Virus record (IMG/VR): IMGVR_UViG_3300021437_000011
Span: 1 to 64,000 of that record
Direction: 5' to 3' (one strand)
DNA from: a virus
Length of the DNA: 64,000 nucleotides
Position numbers and translations under genes: made by a program. The notes below the pieces were generated by a model, which saw nothing but the letters and a program-made list of their open reading frames with translations, was not told the DNA's origin and did not search any database. Of the stretch, positions 9,364-32,976 are shown one piece after another. The stretch's first letter is position 1. Each line of letters starts with the position of its first letter.

Positions 9364-9678
9364 ATGGCCACACTCATCGTTGCTGATCCCTGGGGAGCCA
9401 CGACAAGGCCGTTAGCGGAGCCAGGAGGCACATGGCGCACCCTCTCAGGAGAAGACACCCCCCACGCAGCACATTGGCGCATTTATCTCGGAGCGCTTCA
9501 GCTCGATTTGTTCGCTCCCCGCAACATGCCCCACGTGTGGTTCATCAGCGCGGCTCCCTTCGCCGACGCGCTAATGGTCGGCGATAGGCTTGGGGCGGAC
9601 AGGGCCAAGATCGTCGCCCAAGCGACTCTTCAGCACATCCTTCATCAGCACATGATGCTCATGGATGGTGCTTTATGA
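9364..9678 (+). CDS. hypothetical protein
   Basis: GGGAG RBS before ATG 9364. Confidence 0.55.
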   Translation: MATLIVADPWGATTRPLAEPGGTWRTLSGEDTPHAAHWRIYLGALQLDLFAPRNMPHVWFISAAPFADALMVGDRLGADRAKIVAQATLQHILHQHMMLMDGAL

Positions 9679-9832
9679 AATTAATCGCGGTCGGCGCAGA
9701 GTGATGAGACCTCTGCGCCGATCTAACCATCAGCAAAGGATTGCACGGACCAATGCATCAGGATGCCTTAGCCATAACCGCGGCTTTGCGCGGTTGGCAA
9801 CAAAAAACCTTCTGCGCTTGCGGGAGGTCGAA

Positions 9833-10933
9833 ATGAAAAGTTCCGAAGCGACAACAGCTTGGCGCGAAGCGCTGACAGCCGTGACGTCCTTGGCGTTCAT
9901 GACTCCATCCATGGCCATAAACGCCCTTCATCAGCTCAACACGCCAGGCCCTTTGGTCCCGGCCTACGCCTCAGCTTCAGCTAGCGTAATGTCCGTCCTC
10001 CTTGCGGCGGGAGCTCCATTTGTCATAAAACGCAAAACCGACGCCAGCATTCGCTTGGCGGCCGTCGCCGCATTCATCGTCTGCGCTGGATACAATCTGC
10101 AAACCGCCATCGGCGCGGCCAGCCTATCCAGAAGTTCTGGCGTTGGGACGAGAGAGGCGGAAGCGGCAAGAGCAAAACTTTTGGCCGGGCAGGTGGCGCA
10201 GGCGGAAACATCTCGCGCGGCGCTGGCCAGGGCCGTGGGCGAGGACACGACCGCGATGATCGAGGCGACGCTCAAGGCGATGCGTCAAGATGCGAAATGG
10301 TCTCGTTCTAAAAACGCCTCTGGCGAAGGATGCGAGGATGCGACAAAGGAAGACACCCGCGCGTTTTGCGCCGAATACGCCAAGAAGCTGGCCACGAAAA
10401 ATGCGGCCATGAAAATCGGCGAGCTGGACGTCCAGCTCGATGATCTCAAGAGGAAGCTCATCACCGCGACCAACGCTGCGACAAGCCAAGCCGCCGACCC
10501 GCAGGCGAGCAATGTCGTTCTTGTCCTGGAAATGATAGGCGTAAGCGCCGAGGCGGCGAAAGTCGGCGTCGGCCTCAATCTGTGGTTCGCGCTGACAATC
10601 GAGGTTTTGGCGGCGCTAGGTCCGGTTGTCCTTAGCGTCCTGTTCTCGGGAAGCGTGTCCAAGCCATCCACGCCGACAGAGGGAAAAGCAGAGACTCCCG
10701 CGCCTGCCCCAGAGGGAAAAGAGGAGAAGCCGGATACAACCAAGGGTTGTAAGCCTTCTGGACTGTCCATGGTCGGGGGGACTGACGTCACCGTGACGGC
10801 AATGGTCGCCGCCTCGTCAGCGCAAGAGGCAGCCGCCCGCTTGGGCGTATCGGAACGAACGATATGGCGGAGGATCGCTGAGGAAAAATCGAAAGCTGGC
10901 GGCAAGCCAAAGTCACGAGCATCTGCATCTTGA
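9833..10933 (+). CDS. 4-TM membrane protein with coiled coil and C-terminal HTH (paralogue A)
   Basis: GGGAGG RBS; three N-terminal hydrophobic helices, coiled coil with Cys pair, ADPQA, fourth TM, HTH SAQEAAARLGVSERTIWRRI. Confidence 0.8.
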   Translation: MKSSEATTAWREALTAVTSLAFMTPSMAINALHQLNTPGPLVPAYASASASVMSVLLAAGAPFVIKRKTDASIRLAAVAAFIVCAGYNLQTAIGAASLSRSSGVGTREAEAARAKLLAGQVAQAETSRAALARAVGEDTTAMIEATLKAMRQDAKWSRSKNASGEGCEDATKEDTRAFCAEYAKKLATKNAAMKIGELDVQLDDLKRKLITATNAATSQAADPQASNVVLVLEMIGVSAEAAKVGVGLNLWFALTIEVLAALGPVVLSVLFSGSVSKPSTPTEGKAETPAPAPEGKEEKPDTTKGCKPSGLSMVGGTDVTVTAMVAASSAQEAAARLGVSERTIWRRIAEEKSKAGGKPKSRASAS

Positions 10934-11049
10934 CGCAACCACGAAAAACGGCCCCAGCTCCCGCCAGGGCCGTGAAACATTCGAAGCATTTGCCGTGAGC
11001 ACATTGACATGAGCCTCGGCCGGAGTCAATCCGGCCGCCATTTTTGCCC

Positions 11050-11130
11050 CTCCATCTCTCCATTCCGCCGTCGCCTCTCACGCCCCCTTTTTGGGGCTGT
11101 CAGCGCTTTTGGCGGAATGGAGAGATGGAG
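11050..11130. repeat. 20-bp perfect inverted repeat with 41-bp spacer
   Basis: CTCCATCTCTCCATTCCGCC (11050-11069) / GGCGGAATGGAGAGATGGAG (11111-11130). Confidence 0.9.
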
Positions 11131-12394
11131 TTTTGGCGGCCTTCTCCGCCGCTAGGCGTCGGTGGATTGTTCGCTCTGACACCCCTTTCAGCTTGGCGAT
11201 CTCCGCCACTGTCATGGACCCTGTCAGGGCTGTCACTGACATGTCACCCCCCCTGACAACTGTCAGTGACACGCGCCTGTCAGGGTTGCCGCCACGCGAC
11301 AACGGCGTGTCAGTGTCATCTGTCAGTGTGGCTGTTTTAACACTGACACTGTCACTGACACGCCTGCTAACCCTTTGATTTTTAGTGTCAGTACGTGTCA
11401 GTGTGGCTTTTTTAACACTGACAGGTGTCAGTGTCTCCCTGTCAGTGACACTGACATTTTGGCAGACCTGTCTGTCAGTGGCTGTCACCCTGTCATCTGA
11501 CATGTCACCCTGACACGTGTCAGTGTCAGTGTCAGGGTGACAGCCGTGGCTGTCAGTGTCAGATGTCAGTGTCAGGGCGCTGTCAGGGTGACAGCCATGT
11601 CCGCTTTTTTGTCCGCTTCCCGCGAACGTCAGGAGCAGGGTGGCGTCACGGAAGAAGCCCAAGAGGAGGACGCCTGACACCATAAACAAATCCGACCACG
11701 CCTCGACGCCAAGGCCAACCCGGCGCGCGAACCACCGGTTTCCCGCGACCGGGTCGGAAACCGAATCCGATGTTTCACGGGAGGCGTCACGCCTCATCTC
11801 AAGCCTGGCGTCCTCAGCCCCCTTGGCCTTGGCTAGCTCCACGCCCAGCTCCACATACCTGTCGCAATGCCGAGCCCGGAACGCCCAGTGCTCTCTATCC
11901 GTGCAATCCTTCGTCCATGCTCCTAGGGTTTTAGTGGAGCCATCAATGCCCTTGGCGTTCTGGTATGTCACCAGTTTAGAAAGTTCTACTGCACGCTCAG
12001 CTTGTATTTCGTCTGAGCCCTTAATGGTCTCGTCCCACGATTTCGCCGTTAGATTCTTGAGTTCAGAGAGTTTAGCTTTGCGGCGCGCGGCGGCGAGTTC
12101 CCGGTCATCAATGCGACGCTGGACTTGACTCGCCCAGAAGCCAATTTCCAGGGGGATGAGGTACGCCTCGCCCAGAATGCAGAAAAGGCAGCACACGCCG
12201 GCCAGCCATTTGGAGCCATTATCCCAATGCCTGTGGGCGGCCACCGAACCGATAGCCGACCCCACAACCGCCAGAACCGCCAGCCCGCAGGGGATTGCCC
12301 CCTGGGCGCCAACATAGTCCCAAACGATCGCCGCAGTCAGCGAGAGAGAGAACAACCAGAACGCAACGCCAGCGGACTTGCGTATGAAACTCAT
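11078..12394 (-). CDS. 4-TM membrane protein with coiled coil and C-terminal HTH (paralogue B, carries the TGTCA array)
   Basis: GGAGG RBS, ATG overlaps FtsK stop; same architecture as 9833-10933; HTH TVAEIAKLKGVSERTIHRRL. Confidence 0.8.
   Translation of the reverse strand: MSFIRKSAGVAFWLFSLSLTAAIVWDYVGAQGAIPCGLAVLAVVGSAIGSVAAHRHWDNGSKWLAGVCCLFCILGEAYLIPLEIGFWASQVQRRIDDRELAAARRKAKLSELKNLTAKSWDETIKGSDEIQAERAVELSKLVTYQNAKGIDGSTKTLGAWTKDCTDREHWAFRARHCDRYVELGVELAKAKGAEDARLEMRRDASRETSDSVSDPVAGNRWFARRVGLGVEAWSDLFMVSGVLLLGFFRDATLLLTFAGSGQKSGHGCHPDSALTLTSDTDSHGCHPDTDTDTCQGDMSDDRVTATDRQVCQNVSVTDRETLTPVSVKKATLTRTDTKNQRVSRRVSDSVSVKTATLTDDTDTPLSRGGNPDRRVSLTVVRGGDMSVTALTGSMTVAEIAKLKGVSERTIHRRLAAEKAAKTPSLHSAKSADSPKKGA
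11177..11593. repeat. dense intragenic array of TGTCA/TGACA (mostly STGTCAG) in both orientations
   Basis: About 39 copies by hand count in about 420 bp; includes 28-bp near-duplicates at 11321 and 11396, and TGTCAGGGTGACAGCC at 11530 and 11581. Confidence 0.95.
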
Positions 12395-14451
12395 GGCGGC
12401 ATCCTCCACATAGTCGAACCTCCGAAGGCGGTCTTTCCGTCAGTTTCCGCTCCAAGGCGCTTGAGGGCGCTTGTCAGGCTGCCTTCCGACCTGTAGCCGT
12501 TGTCACATGCGACCCGGAAAAGCTCTGACCGTGTCTTAGGCCCGCTGAAGAACGCCTCGCGTATAACATCGTCCAACGGGCGCTTAACGCTTCCCCTTGT
12601 CCCCAATCCATGCTTATCTGATTCGCCCACGGCTGACCCGTCATCATCACCCACATCCCCCATATCAACGTATTCTGGAGGGGGACTCGACGCGATCAGC
12701 GCATCAACGATCTCAAGAATTCCGTCGGAATCAATGAACGCGCTATGGCAACGCTGCACCCGCCCCGCCTTCTCCAGCAGCAAGAAATCCCCAGCCCCCA
12801 GGAGCTTTTCAGCGCCCCTGTTCCCCGACCCGAGCATGACCTCGCTGTCAACCCCGGAGGCCGCCAGAAAGGCTTGACGAGTTGAGAAGTTAGCCTTGAT
12901 GGCCCCCTTGATGATTTCGCGATCCGGACGCTGCATGGACAAGACTAGGTGGACGCCAGCGGCGCGCGCGATCTGAGCCAGCTTCTGCAGAGCGTTGGAG
13001 ATGTCAGCGGCGCGTTTGGCCTCAGGAGAATTCTTTTCTCCAACGACGGTCATAAGGTCGGCGACCTCGTCAATGAACGCGACGATAAACGGAATTTTTC
13101 GTAATTGGTCATCGACCCGCGCATTGTACTCAACGAGATTGCGGACCCCGCGAATCTTCTCAAACGCCTCATATCGCCGAGAGGTCTCCGCCAGCAGCCA
13201 CCTCAGGGCGATAGCCGCCTCTTCCTGTGTCGTGATCACTGGCGTCAACAGATGAGGTATCCCCGCATAGATTGTGAATTCCGCTTTTTTGGGATCAATG
13301 AGCAGCAAGCGGCACTGCTCAGGAGTCCGCGAGCTGATCAGGGAAACGATATCCGTATTCACGCCCACCGATTTCCCTGACCCAGTCGTCCCCGCAACCA
13401 GCTTATGGATCAGCGCCGCCTGGTCTTTGATAACTGGTTCTCCCAGGGGATCTACGCCCATCGCCATGGGAAGATGCCCGGAAAAATTCATAAATTTCTC
13501 ATGTTTGAGGATGGCGCTCAGCAACACCAACTGGCGAACGGCGTTGGGAATTTCAATCGACAGGCCGGCAGACTTGGGCGTTTTGACGATACGTATGGAC
13601 TCTTCGCCCAAACGCAGCTCAATATCGTCCTCTAGCCTCAGGACGTCCCCTATGCGGACGCCTCGGTCTGGAACAAAAACATAGGTGGTGACGACTGGGC
13701 CAACACTGACTCCGGAGATGCGGCCGAGCACTCGCAAATGAGCGAACTCCTGAATGATCCTGGCGGATTTTTCCAAATCCTCAGCCATGGGATGCGCCTC
13801 GACATCGATCACTTGGGAGCCTGGCGCGAGCAAGGCGCGCGACTGCGACGCGACCGGCTTATACGGAGGCGCGCGAAAGGCGATGCGCCCCATGCATCCG
13901 GCGTGGTAATCCAGAGGGTACAGGTCGGGAGCGACAGGGATGCAGCGGTTTATGGGGAGCGCTGAGAATGAGCCCTTGCAACACCCAGCCGCAAATATTC
14001 CAGATTGCCGTTGGGCGTCGGCGGCGCTGACAGGCTCTGACAACCGCCAGACGGCTATGGCCCGTCCAGATAGGCTCCAGTAGGCGAGGTGCGGGGGCCT
14101 GGATTGATTGCCCAAAAACCCGCTCAGACCTCTGGCGTGCGCCGCAACGACGCACATGCCGGTAATGTCCTGGTCTGTTGGCTCTCGCGCGAGAGGTTCT
14201 TTCACGTCGCCAAGGCACACCCACACCTCGGCGCCGCGATGATAGGCGGCCAATATCCATCGTTCGGCGAGAGCGCGGCGGCTCTCGCCGTAAAATGTCC
14301 GCCATTCCCAAGAGGCGTGGGAGGAGCCGAAATGACAAGCCCCGAGAACCCAGTGCGGGTTCTCGGGGATCAGCCTGTCAATGAAATCGCATGACATGCG
14401 CGCTGAAGAGCTGATCTTGTCCCTGAGCTTAACTTTCGGTGAATTTTCCAT
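12391..14451 (-). CDS. FtsK/SpoIIIE-family DNA translocase ATPase without N-terminal TM domain
   Basis: Alpha domain GPVVTTY..., Walker A AGTTGSGKS, LIDPKK.EF..Y, Walker B FIDEVADLM, RAAGVHLVLSMQRP, GAEKLLG.GD; atypical N and C termini. Confidence 0.93.
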   Translation of the reverse strand: MENSPKVKLRDKISSSARMSCDFIDRLIPENPHWVLGACHFGSSHASWEWRTFYGESRRALAERWILAAYHRGAEVWVCLGDVKEPLAREPTDQDITGMCVVAAHARGLSGFLGNQSRPPHLAYWSLSGRAIAVWRLSEPVSAADAQRQSGIFAAGCCKGSFSALPINRCIPVAPDLYPLDYHAGCMGRIAFRAPPYKPVASQSRALLAPGSQVIDVEAHPMAEDLEKSARIIQEFAHLRVLGRISGVSVGPVVTTYVFVPDRGVRIGDVLRLEDDIELRLGEESIRIVKTPKSAGLSIEIPNAVRQLVLLSAILKHEKFMNFSGHLPMAMGVDPLGEPVIKDQAALIHKLVAGTTGSGKSVGVNTDIVSLISSRTPEQCRLLLIDPKKAEFTIYAGIPHLLTPVITTQEEAAIALRWLLAETSRRYEAFEKIRGVRNLVEYNARVDDQLRKIPFIVAFIDEVADLMTVVGEKNSPEAKRAADISNALQKLAQIARAAGVHLVLSMQRPDREIIKGAIKANFSTRQAFLAASGVDSEVMLGSGNRGAEKLLGAGDFLLLEKAGRVQRCHSAFIDSDGILEIVDALIASSPPPEYVDMGDVGDDDGSAVGESDKHGLGTRGSVKRPLDDVIREAFFSGPKTRSELFRVACDNGYRSEGSLTSALKRLGAETDGKTAFGGSTMWRMPP

Positions 14452-14971
14452 AGATCAACTCTGCTCCATCATCGCCATCAACCATTAAGTATCCAGTTGG
14501 TTCTGAAAATTTTATCAGTCCCGACAAGAAACCCTCTGGATCTAATTTATCGTATCCACTAACTTCACAGTAGTCAGCATAGCTGTCTATTAGGTTCGCC
14601 TCCGTGATGTAATCACTTTCATTGTGAGTTATTACAATAGAGGAGCTTATCCATGCTTCAAACGCTTCTTCAGCGCTCATATCTCCCCCATTCGAAGGAT
14701 AAACTGGGGATATCGGCCTAGTCGGCGCCTGAGCCTGCTGCTTCGCCATCCGTGCGCGCTGCAATCCCACAAGATCTCTCTTTATCCCATAAGGAGACGC
14801 GGGCGCGGCTGGTTGTGGCGCGGGATTGCTTTGGGACTCTTCTTGTAACGCCGTCTGTCGTTTTTTGTCCTGCTCTGCCATAGAGCCAACACACTTAGCA
14901 ACTATAGCCCCCGTAGCTGGAGGAAGAGCTGCGGACGCAACCAGCATCCCCAATGTAGCTAATATGCTCAT
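14429..14971 (-). CDS. N-terminally hydrophobic protein with C-terminal primase-type winged helix
   Basis: MSILATLGMLVASAALPP... followed by FEAWI....YITEANLIDSYADYCEVSGY..L....F (D5/primase C-terminal wHTH pattern). Confidence 0.55.
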   Translation of the reverse strand: MSILATLGMLVASAALPPATGAIVAKCVGSMAEQDKKRQTALQEESQSNPAPQPAAPASPYGIKRDLVGLQRARMAKQQAQAPTRPISPVYPSNGGDMSAEEAFEAWISSSIVITHNESDYITEANLIDSYADYCEVSGYDKLDPEGFLSGLIKFSEPTGYLMVDGDDGAELIYGKFTES

Positions 14972-14987
14972 TACTTGATAGTCCTTG

Positions 14988-15437
14988 CTAATACTTCCAT
15001 TTGTTAACGTAAAATACGATGTTGGTGCGGACTTCGTCTTCCAGCATCCGCAGAGCGCGCATTGCTTTCTTTTCCATGGGGGTGTCTGGCTCAACAGCCA
15101 AAGTAGCCAAGTTATCGAATGCTTCTTTTATTTCGTCCTGCATTGTTTTTTTTGCATCATCCTTGAATAGAACCTTATAATTCTTCGTTTTGTCCCTGAG
15201 CTCATCAACAACAAAACCAAGATGAGTTGAGAGCCTTACTTCAAATATGGATATTTCCTCAAGAAACAACTCATCCATAACTATATTGTGCCTGCTAATT
15301 CGCTCCTGCATGTTGTTAAATGCAATTTTTATTATCTCCCCAATCCGGTTTCCCGCGCTGAGAGGCACCCTTATGCCTCCCGCTTTTCTGACCTCTGCTT
15401 CCGCCTTTCGGTTGCGTCCTCCCCAGAAACTCATCAA
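14988..15437 (-). CDS. hypothetical protein
   Basis: Overlaps upstream stop; operonic. Confidence 0.65.
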   Translation of the reverse strand: MMSFWGGRNRKAEAEVRKAGGIRVPLSAGNRIGEIIKIAFNNMQERISRHNIVMDELFLEEISIFEVRLSTHLGFVVDELRDKTKNYKVLFKDDAKKTMQDEIKEAFDNLATLAVEPDTPMEKKAMRALRMLEDEVRTNIVFYVNKWKY

Positions 15438-20252: not shown

Positions 20253-21598
20253 GGGCGATACCTGTACATGCCGGGGGCGACCTCTGTAAGGCCATCCGCC
20301 AAGGGTTTTCTGAGGGCGTCAACCCTCGCGGAGCGCTCGGCTTTCGCCTTGGCGTCGCTCTGCAGATACACGAACTGCCGTCGGACCACCTGCATGACCT
20401 CGATGGCCGTCATGTACGACCTGACGTTGACCGCTGAGGCCAGTAAGCCGCCAAGGACGTCCACTAGGGGGAATGTGGTCTCAAGCTCGCTCCTGAAGCC
20501 TCCTGCGGCCTCCAGGCGGCCATCTGGCGTGATCCAGACCTCTCGCTGCGCCTTGGCTTCCGCCTGCTTCAGGAACGCGTCCTGACGCGCCTTGGGCGTG
20601 GACCAGCACTCCGGGATCTCTGGGGCGGCCTGGATAATGGCTGGAGGCTCGGCGGGAGCCGCTGCGGCGGGGACCGCTCCGGCCAGACTGGCCAAAACCG
20701 CAGATGCAACTTTTTCTACGTAGCCAGGAAATTTTTCAACCTTGGGGGGCAGAGCCGGTTCTGGGGTTCGCGCGTGGAGGATGTCCTCTGACTCTCCCCC
20801 TGTTTTTTTATACAGATTCTCTTTACAGATTAAGCGGACATTTTTGTCCGGTCTTAATGGACAAAAATGTCCGGTCTTAATGCCAAAATCAGGCTCGGAA
20901 GACGGGCCAGAAACCCCTTGAGCGGACATTTCTGTCCGGTCTTGACCTGTATTATATCCGGGTAAATCCTCTTGAACGGACATTTCTGTCCGGTCTTGAT
21001 GTTTTCCATAACTGCCTTGAGCGGACATTTCTGTCCGGTCTTGACCTGTATTATATCCGGGTAAATCCTCTTGAACGGACATCTCCGTCCGATATTGAGC
21101 GGTGGGAATCGCTGTTTCAGCCACTAAGCGAGGAGGTAAATTTGCCATAATCTCGGCTCCAATCTGGGCCAGAACCGGACCAGGAATGGTCATGGTTTTC
21201 TCCGCGCCGCCCCGCCGCCGCCTCTTCACGGACATCCAGCCCGCGGCTTCGAGCTCCTTGTTTGATCTCCTGACGGTTTTCTCGTTGCACCGAGTCAGGG
21301 CGGCGATTGTGTCGTTGCCTACATTCGTCCGGAGGTGCGTCCCGTTTGTGTACGAAAGGTGGAAACACAGAACTCTGAAAGCGTTGTCGCTGATGTCAGA
21401 AACCAGCGCGGCGTTTATGAGCCGGGTGCGAGCGCACACATTATGGCTTGTGGCGTGAGATTTCAGCCAGTTGAGGCGTAGGGAGTCAGCCGTCTGATTA
21501 ACAGCGTCTTCGACCTCGGAGACAGTAATGTCTGGAAAGGATGGTCGCTGTTCAATGGCGGGAAACTCGATTACGCTCGTCTCAAACGTTGGGTACAT
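20249..21598 (-). CDS. phage replication initiator (lambda O-like, N-terminal HTH)
   Basis: GNDTIAALTRCNEKTVRRSNKELEAAGW HTH; internal iterons; upstream of the primase/helicase. Confidence 0.75.
   Translation of the reverse strand: MYPTFETSVIEFPAIEQRPSFPDITVSEVEDAVNQTADSLRLNWLKSHATSHNVCARTRLINAALVSDISDNAFRVLCFHLSYTNGTHLRTNVGNDTIAALTRCNEKTVRRSNKELEAAGWMSVKRRRRGGAEKTMTIPGPVLAQIGAEIMANLPPRLVAETAIPTAQYRTEMSVQEDLPGYNTGQDRTEMSAQGSYGKHQDRTEMSVQEDLPGYNTGQDRTEMSAQGVSGPSSEPDFGIKTGHFCPLRPDKNVRLICKENLYKKTGGESEDILHARTPEPALPPKVEKFPGYVEKVASAVLASLAGAVPAAAAPAEPPAIIQAAPEIPECWSTPKARQDAFLKQAEAKAQREVWITPDGRLEAAGGFRSELETTFPLVDVLGGLLASAVNVRSYMTAIEVMQVVRRQFVYLQSDAKAKAERSARVDALRKPLADGLTEVAPGMYRYRP
20836..21090. repeat. 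putative replication origin iterons
   Basis: Six GGACA-N4-TGTCC palindromes (last one imperfect) at 20836, 20859, 20924, 20978, 21023 and 21077; 99-bp duplication. Confidence 0.85.
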
Positions 21599-30324: not shown

Positions 30325-32976
30325 ATGACTTCGGTCAAAACCAAAACTGTATGGTCTCCCCAGCCTGGGCCTCAGACGACGCTTCTGAGATGCCCAGTAT
30401 TTGAAGTTTTGTATGGTGGCGCTCGTGGTGGGGGCAAAGCCGTTCTATATAAAGAACGGATTTTAACGCCATTTGGATGGAAGGACTTCCATGGTCTGGA
30501 AGTGGGGTCAAGCATATGTTCGACAGAAGGAACAGTCCAAAAGGTAATTGGGGTTTATCCACAAGGGAAACGCCCTGTATACAAACTAGTATGGAGCGAT
30601 GGTTCGGAGACAATCTGCGATGAGAACCATATCTGGCTCGCTTGGCTGAGCAATCAGTCCAGAAAAGCTGTGGGGTCTCGCTTGAGCGGAGAAGAGTCCG
30701 CCAAAAAATGGACAACAAAGCAGATCGCTGCCCATTACGAGAAGACGCAGAAGACTAGGCGGCGGATTGGCATTCCCATTATCAAGAAGCCAGTTGTCTT
30801 TACAGTTCAAGGTGAAGCTCAAGGCCCAGGGAAACACATATCGAGAGTCATACCTCCGTATGCGCTTGGCGTCCTTCTTGGCGACGGTTGTATAACAGGA
30901 AAGAGCGTTTCGTTCTGCAAACCTGACAGGGAAATCGCCGAAAAAGTACAAGATCAGATCTTCAAAGCATTTGGCGAGTCGGCTGTGTTGAGGGAGAGTA
31001 GGGACCTGACCCATACTCCAGTGTGGTTCATCCCCTCAAAAATAATGATTCCTCACCTTGAGGACCTGGGCCTCATGGGGCTCTACTCCTATGAAAAGTT
31101 CATTCCCCGTATTTACCTGTTCGCTCCGGAAGAAGACCGTTGGGAGCTTCTTCGCGGCCTCATGGACACTGATGGATGGGTCGAGGATGACGGAGATTGC
31201 TACTATTGCTCGACATCTGAGCAGCTCATAGAGGATGCGCGCCATCTCGCCAGATCAATGGGCGCTATTGTCACCCTCAGGGGAAAGACACCCCACTACA
31301 CCTATAAGGGCGGGCGTCGCGAAGGGCGTCCGGCGCAAACGATCCGCATCAAGATGCGCGATCCTGAGCGCATGTTTAGCCTCCCTCGTAAGGCCGATCG
31401 CTGCTGCGGAAAAATCCCGCAAAGCATGGCGATCTGGCTCGAAAGCATTGAACCAGCCGGTGAAGAGGAGACGGTTTGCATTGCTGTTTCTCACCCTAAC
31501 TCTTTGTATATCATAGATAATTTCATCGTCACTCACAACACCGACGCAATGCTCGGGGACTTTGTGAAGCACGCCGGGCAATACGGAGAAGATGCGATAG
31601 GGCTGTGTGTTAGACGCGAACGCACCCAGTTAAAGGAGATGATAGAGAGGTCGCGACAAATATATGGACCAATAGGAGCAAAATATTCAAGCCAAGATAA
31701 ACAGTGGAGATTTCCAGATGGCGCACGTTTAACTTTCGCTTATCTTGAAAACGACGCAGATGCTGAAGCATACCAAGGGTGGAATACAACTCGTGTCTAC
31801 GTAGAGGAAATGGGAAACTTTCCTCGTCCTGAGCCTATATTCAAACTCATGGCCACGCTTCGTTCTGGGAATCCCGACGTCAGAGTCGGTTTCCGCGCAA
31901 CCGCGAATCCAGGCGGGCCAGGTCATCTGTGGATTCGCGCGCGCTATATTGATCCAGCGCCCCGCGGTCTCAAAATCCTGACCGACAAGTTTATCAACCC
32001 CTTCACCAAGGAAGAGAAGGGTATCGAGAGAGTTTATATCCCTTCTAAAGTAACGGATAATCGTTTCTGCAACAATACCGATTACATTGCGCGCCTCCAG
32101 CTTGCCGCTGGGACGAAGCTCTTGCAGGCGTGGCTGCATGGCGACTGGGACTTGATTGAGGGGGCCTTCTTCTCCGAGTGGGACGATTCCAAGCACATCA
32201 TCAAGCCATTCGCGATCCCCACCAACTGGACGCGTTTCGTCTCGGCGGACTGGGGCTCGGCCGCGCCATTCTCAATCGGCTGGTGGGCGGTTGTTTCGGA
32301 CGACTACGAGGACATCTTCGGCCCCAGGGCTCATGATGACGGCCAAGCCGCATATGCAGGAGGGCTTCCGCGCGGCGCGATCGTCCGTTATCGGGAGTGG
32401 TATGGCTCGCCAAATCACAACAATGTTGGCCTGAAGCTTTACGCCGAACAGGTTGCGGCCGGAATTGTCGAGCGCGAGCGCGATGAGCCGCGCAATCACG
32501 GCGGCGCAGCACGAATCGCCTACCGCGTCATAGACCCCGACGCCTGCCGCGAAAAAGGGGGGCCTTCCATTGCTGAACGCATGAGCTGGGCGCCGCATCG
32601 TATTTTCTGGCGTCCGGCCGACAACGCCCGCGTCGGCCGACGCGGAGCAATGGGGGGATGGGACGCTGTTCGAGCTAGGCTCAAGGGCGAGGATGGCGTC
32701 CCCATGCTCTACATCTTCGACAATTGCATTGACCTCATCCGGTGTCTGCCGGTGGCGCAGCATGATCCAGACAATATGGAAGATATTGACGATTGCGAAG
32801 ATCACGCGATTGACGACCTGCGCTATGCGTGCATGAGCAGGCCATATGTCGCGACTGCTGATAAAGAGAAAAAAGACAAATACTTTACAATTGGTCCGGA
32901 AAGCAAAGTAACTCTTAATGATATACTTGAACAGTATGACCACAGGACGCCAAAATCATATGAAAGAATACGCTGA
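30325..32976 (+). CDS. terL: terminase large subunit, intein-containing
   Basis: PQPGPQ, YGGARGGGK|T, YQG...VEE, TANPGGPGH.W, DWG..APFS, EDHAIDDLRY. Confidence 0.95.
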   Translation: MTSVKTKTVWSPQPGPQTTLLRCPVFEVLYGGARGGGKAVLYKERILTPFGWKDFHGLEVGSSICSTEGTVQKVIGVYPQGKRPVYKLVWSDGSETICDENHIWLAWLSNQSRKAVGSRLSGEESAKKWTTKQIAAHYEKTQKTRRRIGIPIIKKPVVFTVQGEAQGPGKHISRVIPPYALGVLLGDGCITGKSVSFCKPDREIAEKVQDQIFKAFGESAVLRESRDLTHTPVWFIPSKIMIPHLEDLGLMGLYSYEKFIPRIYLFAPEEDRWELLRGLMDTDGWVEDDGDCYYCSTSEQLIEDARHLARSMGAIVTLRGKTPHYTYKGGRREGRPAQTIRIKMRDPERMFSLPRKADRCCGKIPQSMAIWLESIEPAGEEETVCIAVSHPNSLYIIDNFIVTHNTDAMLGDFVKHAGQYGEDAIGLCVRRERTQLKEMIERSRQIYGPIGAKYSSQDKQWRFPDGARLTFAYLENDADAEAYQGWNTTRVYVEEMGNFPRPEPIFKLMATLRSGNPDVRVGFRATANPGGPGHLWIRARYIDPAPRGLKILTDKFINPFTKEEKGIERVYIPSKVTDNRFCNNTDYIARLQLAAGTKLLQAWLHGDWDLIEGAFFSEWDDSKHIIKPFAIPTNWTRFVSADWGSAAPFSIGWWAVVSDDYEDIFGPRAHDDGQAAYAGGLPRGAIVRYREWYGSPNHNNVGLKLYAEQVAAGIVERERDEPRNHGGAARIAYRVIDPDACREKGGPSIAERMSWAPHRIFWRPADNARVGRRGAMGGWDAVRARLKGEDGVPMLYIFDNCIDLIRCLPVAQHDPDNMEDIDDCEDHAIDDLRYACMSRPYVATADKEKKDKYFTIGPESKVTLNDILEQYDHRTPKSYERIR
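30439..31539 (+). mobile_element. class 3 intein with LAGLIDADG homing endonuclease (367 aa)
   Basis: Starts with Ala after the Walker A Lys; block B ENHIW, LGVLLGDG, LRGLMDTDG, block F TVCIAV, end VTHN|T. Confidence 0.9.

Follow-up and report, generated by a model that had tools for sequence, protein, structure and literature searches.

The gene for P0001, a membrane-anchored helix-turn-helix (HTH) protein of a tailed phage found in freshwater metagenomes, carries 39 copies of the word TGTCA/TGACA packed into 417 bp of coding sequence, and the evidence strongly supports that selection acts there on the DNA and not on the peptide. With moderate confidence we propose that the array is a set of cis docking sites for the HTH domains of P0001 and of its paralogue P0002, which would hold the DNA of the phage, or of its plasmid-prophage form, at the membrane near an FtsK-like pump. 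The window analysed here, the first 64 kb of the phage record, holds 140 TGTCA/TGACA words in total, and exactly 39 of them fall in the array. The 91.8 kb of genome outside the array holds 155 words, which gives an expectation of 0.70 per 417 bp (Poisson P about 3e-53). The first-pass annotation of this DNA, made from the letters alone, had counted about 39 copies against fewer than one expected, and both figures stand. A genome-wide scan found no second cluster: at most 5 words were counted in any other 500-bp bin, and the array is the only cluster in the genome. The features of the locus and of the replication origin are listed in Table 1.

Table 1. Features of the array locus and the replication origin (window coordinates).
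Feature	Position	Strand	Basis
Paralogue P0002, convergent gene	9665..10933	+	ORF, alignment
Two terminator-like hairpins between the convergent genes	10973-10948 / 11017-11037	- / +	Hairpin search
P0001 gene, membrane-anchored HTH protein	11078..12409	-	ORF, sequence read directly
C-terminal HTH of P0001, helices 401-408 and 412-426	11132..11212	-	AlphaFold (confident), sequence
Array, 39 TGTCA/TGACA words	11177..11593	no strand	Word search, counts
Disordered linker of P0001, residues 263-399, carries the array	11213..11623	-	AlphaFold, pLDDT <50
N-terminal membrane domain of P0001, residues 1-262	11624..12409	-	AlphaFold, pLDDT mostly >90
FtsK-like motor P0004	12391..14451	-	FtsK alpha domain and FtsK/SpoIIIE ATPase (Pfam)
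P0170, single-TM protein	14429..15094	-	Gene overlaps FtsK start
Initiator P0171	20249-21598	-	HTH_36, PHROG replication initiation
Six palindromic iterons CGGACA-N4-TGTCCG	20830-21100	inside P0171 gene	Sequence

The phage is represented by a single virus record, IMGVR_UViG_3300021437_000011 (92,246 bp; CheckV completeness 100%). The record ends share an overlap of 126 bp (genome 1-126 and 92120-92245), so the genome is circular or terminally redundant despite the linear classification of the record. It encodes a tail-spike-like protein, a primase/helicase, a DUF1064 resolvase, a small terminase, an endolysin and three tRNAs, together with an XRE-type regulator, and the same phage sequence was found in four freshwater metagenome studies. 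A GcrA-like gene points to an alphaproteobacterial host; the host is probably a freshwater alphaproteobacterium and probably Gram-negative. No tyrosine integrase was found in the complete genome, and the whole record had no match to ParB (ParB_N, PF02195) or to a ParA-type ATPase (AAA_31, PF13614). The only recombinase found is a small serine resolvase of 185 aa (genome 83556-84113, minus strand; L002:1556-2113). With neither a tyrosine integrase nor ParB_N nor an AAA_31-type ParA, the phage is a candidate phage-plasmid, and its gene content is compatible with an extrachromosomal prophage that needs an inheritance device other than ParABS. Elsewhere in the window (30325-32976), an 883-aa ORF has a LAGLIDADG_3 domain and is possibly an intein or homing endonuclease within a large phage protein.

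On the plus strand the array is made up of 26 TGTCA and 13 TGACA words, irregularly spaced with a modal centre-to-centre distance of 6 bp, and part of it is a 6-bp tandem. The extended consensus is S-TGTCA-G-(T)-G, and the core words cover 45% of the array bases. Beside the 39 exact copies there are about 7 independent one-mismatch variants (counted on uncovered bases), compared to a genome-wide ratio of 15 one-mismatch variants per exact word. Either strand of the array folds far better than shuffled sequence (z about -11), which results from the use of one word in both orientations, and Rfam returned only hairpin matches far below threshold. A reading of the words as decoys of the sigma-70 -35 element was dropped because none of the 39 is TTGACA. 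At the upstream edge of the array (window 11598-11615) stand two words of the type found at the replication origin, TGTCCG, 12 bp apart, which may be a matter of chance. Contigs from other freshwater metagenome studies carry the array unchanged (for example X4 over 11234-11500, 0 differences), and no variants within it were found in the metagenome contigs aligned over the locus. Among the sequencing runs listed, none with RNA contained the sequence. A 151-nt low-depth contig of run X1, placed at window 11356-11414, shows 9 differences, and its loose end contains TGACAGTGACAG; this contig may derive from a different element of that sample that has a comparable array.

Next, we asked how much of the array could be dictated by the protein. 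Across the array only one of the six reading frames is open, namely the coding frame, and the array words use all five orientation/phase classes that leave this frame free of stops. None of the 26 TGACA words of the coding strand falls in the phase that would read TGA (P about 2.6e-5). In synonymous resampling, with the peptide fixed and the codons drawn according to the phage's own usage, 4.2 ± 1.9 words were obtained and 12 was the maximum in 20,000 draws, versus 39 observed. By dynamic programming, the ceiling for this peptide is 44 words, so the array is near saturation. The codons ACA, ACT, AGT, TCA, CTG and GAC are strongly over-represented in the array relative to the genome. The two paralogues even encode the conserved GVSE of the HTH differently, as GTG TCA G in P0001 and GTA TCG G in P0002. 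The resampling, the phase use and the GVSE spelling together effectively exclude an explanation by peptide or microsatellite alone. An array with no DNA function, i.e., a T/D/S/V/L peptide repeat of low complexity or a microsatellite undergoing decay, would fit the 6-bp tandem part and the disorder of the linker, but it does not fit the outcome of the resampling, the mixed orientation, the five phase classes, the exact copies with few decayed variants or the identity across samples; we regard it as close to refuted, with next to no probability left. The first reading had described the words as lying in both orientations, in different codon phases and at irregular intervals, and had argued from orientation and phase for selection on DNA. 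The description was accurate, and the argument is strongly supported by the resampling, the phase use and the single open frame.

P0001 has 443 aa if translated from the GTG at 12409 and 438 aa from the ATG at 12394 (database copy P0003), and the ATG is the likely start. This ATG overlaps the stop codon of the FtsK-like gene as ATGA, and the P0001 gene is translationally coupled to that of the motor. We built an AlphaFold model of P0001 with a 42-sequence alignment. The modelled N-domain consists of three TM helices, a long helical hairpin, a small beta head, two conserved Cys and TM4. The words fall in residues about 273-411, that is, the linker and the start of the HTH, as the earlier remark that they are almost confined to the stretch between TM4 and the HTH had implied. 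The recognition helix reads GVSERTIHRRL, and all Pfam HTH matches of this domain stay under the family cut-offs. For the N-domain, Pfam, PHROG and PDB yielded no relative. Structure searches with the P0001 fold gave no meaningful match in Foldseek (best E 0.11) and no convincing PDB match in VIA-align (best Z 7.8, on helical bundles). No initiator family was matched by P0001, and PADLOC returned nothing for the membrane proteins.

The paralogue P0002 is laid out like P0001 and is 49% identical to it over the HTH region, with hardly any change in the recognition helix (GVSERTIWRRI). The 3' end of its gene faces the array from a distance of 244 bp. With 3 words in 1,269 bp the P0002 gene is at background, so the paralogue is free of an array, as the first-pass annotation had noted for its linker. 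A terminator-like hairpin lies downstream of each of the two genes. A perfect 20-nt inverted repeat (11050-11069 and 11111-11130, with a 41-nt spacer) straddles the P0001 stop codon. The near identity of the two recognition helices and the P0002 3' end facing the array speak for docking of both HTH domains, and so does the placement of the array between a membrane domain and an HTH that are both predicted with confidence. Against docking, sites only 6 bp apart could not all be filled simultaneously.

In the docking we propose, P0001 would sit in the inner membrane with its four TM helices and expose a 140-residue stalk with the Cys pair, probably on the periplasmic side. Its cytoplasmic HTH, carried on a disordered linker of ~135 residues, and the HTH of P0002 would bind the TGTCA words as monomers or as loosely coupled units, which fits the mixed orientation and the irregular spacing. 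By binding to 39 packed words, they would anchor the phage DNA at the inner membrane, close to the TM-less FtsK-type pump. The sites may have been placed in the linker because a disordered linker tolerates the residues imposed by the word (T, D, S, V, L), and their placement in the protein's own gene would make it easier for the nascent protein to capture them in cis while transcription, translation and membrane insertion are coupled. The likely use would be positioning, inheritance or pumping of the genome, for example the segregation of an extrachromosomal prophage without ParABS; membrane-attached replication is another candidate use of the tether complex. Both the reader of the array and its purpose are what we infer here, and the FtsK tail or the initiator P0171 could be an alternative or additional reader.

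We then looked for relatives of P0001. An exhaustive HMMER search with its N-domain found 46 proteins of 360-510 residues, and no Pfam family was found in the N-domains of 42 members. The C-termini of the family vary, with an HTH in the closest members and a Pox_D5-like, winged-helix-type end in most of the distant ones. DNA relatives of the locus gave no match in phage and plasmid collections (blastn, tblastn), and IMG/VR, JGI metagenome contigs and GTDB genomes gave no match to P0001, FtsK, P0007, P0127 or the alignments. Apart from the query itself, P0125 was the only protein to come up in word-indexed searches with P0001 or alignment A3. The family profile had no N-domain match in 401 sampled alphaproteobacterial genomes, which yielded three C-terminal Pox_D5-like domains only. 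The arrays returned by a scan of IMG/VR for TGTCAG triplets were unrelated, mostly intergenic and iteron-like, and were set aside as non-relatives; intergenic TGTCA arrays of this iteron-like kind were seen in contigs L077, L105 and L016.

Arrays in the homologues were sought from the peptides only, in 43 family members, by taking the most-writable 6-mer of each linker with shuffled linkers as the null. On P0001 this blind peptide-to-word test recovers TGTCAG, with 35 places versus a mean of 15.0 and a maximum of 21 in shuffled linkers (z 10.5). Homologue P0127, whose N-domain is 52% identical to that of P0001, gave TGTCCG/CGGACA with 46 places versus 16.5 (z 14); up to 45 of these words are attainable at once, in all six classes, and the peptide words that permit TGTCCG include MSA, RT, CP, PDM, DVR, MSG and SGH. 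Homologue P0143 gave TGTCAC/GTGACA with 16 places versus 8.0 (z 6.9), a signal that comes partly from a duplicated 19-residue block. The other 40 members, including P0002, P0124, P0125 and all with a different C-terminal domain, were at background, and an array signal was seen only in members with an HTH-type C-terminus. The three positives share the core TGTC and differ in bases 5-6, and their recognition helices read SERTIHRR (P0001), SERQVRRW (P0127) and ATRRKVQT (P0143). Thus, the linker peptides of P0127, and more weakly those of P0143, imply arrays of their own with variant words, and at this level the peptides point to co-variation of word and recognition helix between homologues. The first-pass annotation had suggested looking for such co-varying homologues: peptide evidence is positive for P0127 and weakly positive for P0143, but no array is seen in the closest two full-length homologues, P0124 and P0125, so not every family member has this design.

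The minus-strand operon that ends with P0001 has the order SprT-like/vWA protein, hypothetical protein, P0170, FtsK-like motor and P0001. In the motor P0004, an N-terminal domain of about 220 aa and a wHTH-like C-terminal tail of 60 residues are conserved; no TM segment and no Pfam gamma domain (PF09397) were detected in it. Its closest relatives, 76-47% identical and from other large contigs, have the same N-domain and tail and are likewise TM-less. The best model for P0004 is cellular FtsK NF007615 (245 bits, below the cut-off of 1566), and the TraB model NF041214 gave 45 bits against a cut-off of 800. PADLOC matched the motor to SspH/mad8 ATPase domains only, and a complex prediction of the motor with P0001 residues 263-443 gave no verdict (score 0.00). 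P0170 has no family match. Its C-terminal domain resembles, by eye, the Pox_D5-like end of the distant P0001-family members, and it is a putative third membrane-tethered DNA binder in the operon.

These properties bear on the possibility that the array is a clt-like loading site, read by the wHTH-like tail of the motor, which would then pump the DNA while the membrane-HTH proteins only anchor the motor. The motor gene is adjacent and translationally coupled to P0001, the tail is conserved in relatives and looks like a winged helix, and Streptomyces TraB recognises clt repeats (PMC4447253). However, the close phage relatives of P0004 also do without PF09397, which nearly all cellular homologues listed carry; the words are 5-7 bp long and point both ways (26:13), unlike polar 8-mers; within the membrane protein family, arrays go with an HTH-type C-terminus; and the score on the TraB model is far from its cut-off. 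We consider it unlikely that motor loading accounts for the array, although loading of the motor and docking of the HTH domains can coexist.

The replication origin of the phage is placed by its iterons away from the array, within the initiator gene, in a lambda-O-like arrangement. The iteron region includes a 99-bp tandem duplication and is translated as DRTEMS(A/V)Q repeats. With iterons in the P0171 gene, the design of sites within a protein's own linker would be used twice by this phage. The iteron half-site TGTCCG is one base from the array word and equals the word deduced for P0127; some cross-talk with replication therefore keeps a low probability. A homology between the HTH domains of P0171 and P0001 was looked for and not found. 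On the strength of the one-base difference, the match with the P0127 word, the two TGTCCG at the array edge and the strong folding of both strands, the array might be taken for an auxiliary replication element, either an iteron-like field (cf. P1 incA and P4 crr) that titrates or handcuffs P0171 or a source of priming hairpins. We rate this as decidedly improbable: there is no TGTCCG inside the array proper and no TGTCAG in the origin, the array does not show the N4-spaced palindromes of the iterons, it lies 9 kb from the initiator inside the gene of another DNA-binding protein, and strong folding is automatic with one word in both orientations.

Packaging offers a further reading, in which the array is the pac site recognised by the small terminase. 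The pac site of P1 consists of repeated hexamers within a gene. In an unrelated phage (IMGVR_UViG_3300009509_000015; L061:1471-1877), 17 TGTCA/TGACA words, possibly a pac site, cover the 5' end of a TerS-like HTH gene. In the present phage, however, the TerS gene (Terminase_2) lies about 11.5 kb from the array when measured around the circle, and the HTH gene that holds the array is unrelated, with a homologue that seems to use a variant word of its own; a pac site is therefore very improbable here.

Docking of the P0001 and P0002 HTH domains thus remains our preferred reading. A wider proposal, which we put forward only tentatively and hold to be doubtful, is that Gram-negative phage-plasmids possess a ParABS-independent machine for inheritance or translocation, in which a centromere written by the protein into its own linker is caught in cis (transertion) and held, together with the paralogue, at a TM-less FtsK-derived pump, and in which word and recognition helix co-evolve (TGTCAG, TGTCCG, TGTCAC). 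If true, the locus would be a clear natural case of a coding sequence doubly written as a dense protein-binding array, with 39 of 44 attainable sites, a double writing that the peptide tolerates as a disordered linker. The locus would also be a candidate for how phage-plasmids with neither integrase nor ParABS are held, inherited or moved. The three word variants, each with a different HTH sequence, would form a matched set for specificity studies, the P0127 and P0143 words being those read from the peptides.

The closest published analogues are SpdA2/sps and TraB/clt. SpdA2 of the Streptomyces plasmid pIJ101 binds sps palindromes inside spdA2 (Thoma et al., 2014, PMC4170104); these sites leave a peptide echo, SRDD/E, and their synonymous removal affected segregational stability (PMC4170104). 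The likeness to the present locus lies in sites inside the gene of the DNA-binding protein itself, on a mobile element with an FtsK-like pump. SpdA proteins, however, have 117-163 aa, a conserved, putatively DNA-binding N-terminal region and two to three copies of a 12-bp palindrome within the gene or next to it, whereas P0001 has 438-443 aa, four TM helices, a C-terminal HTH and 39 words of 5-7 bp. No sequence relationship was detected between SpdA and P0001, only the own-gene site principle is shared, and the host here is probably Gram-negative. The FtsK-like TraB of Streptomyces recognises direct 8-bp repeats of the plasmid clt locus, and it interacts with SpdB2, an oligomeric DNA-binding membrane protein of about 409 aa with four TM segments and a coiled coil (PMC4447253). 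Here too an FtsK-like motor is paired with a repeat locus in cis, and the architecture of SpdB2 is like that of P0001; the N-domains of 42 family members have no Pfam match. The clt repeats are direct 8-mers, whereas the array words have 5-7 bp and are irregularly spaced and in both orientations, and the motor is closer to cellular FtsK than to TraB (245 vs 45 bits) and has no membrane segment.

The FtsK/KOPS system uses the PF09397 gamma domain to read polar 8-mers; P0004 is without PF09397 and the array is not polar. ParABS systems use ParB and a ParA-type ATPase with a centromere, and neither protein is present in this complete record. In phage lambda, the origin lies within gene O, with 4 iterons of 19 bp in the linker-coding region that serve replication initiation. 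As in lambda O, the sites of a protein lie in the linker-coding part of its own gene, and the same holds for the P0171 origin of this phage; the array, however, belongs to a membrane protein gene, has ten times the density and lies away from the origin. Actinobacterial phage-plasmids with TraB-type pumps and other words (GTGGGACG, GGAACT) have no sequence relation to this locus. If our reading is true, the logic of a pump, a cis site and a membrane DNA-binding protein would extend from Streptomyces plasmids to a tailed phage, probably of an alphaproteobacterial host. Compared to the known systems, the protein family of this locus is unrelated, its array is far denser, its motor derives from FtsK and is without TM segments, and the host is probably Gram-negative.
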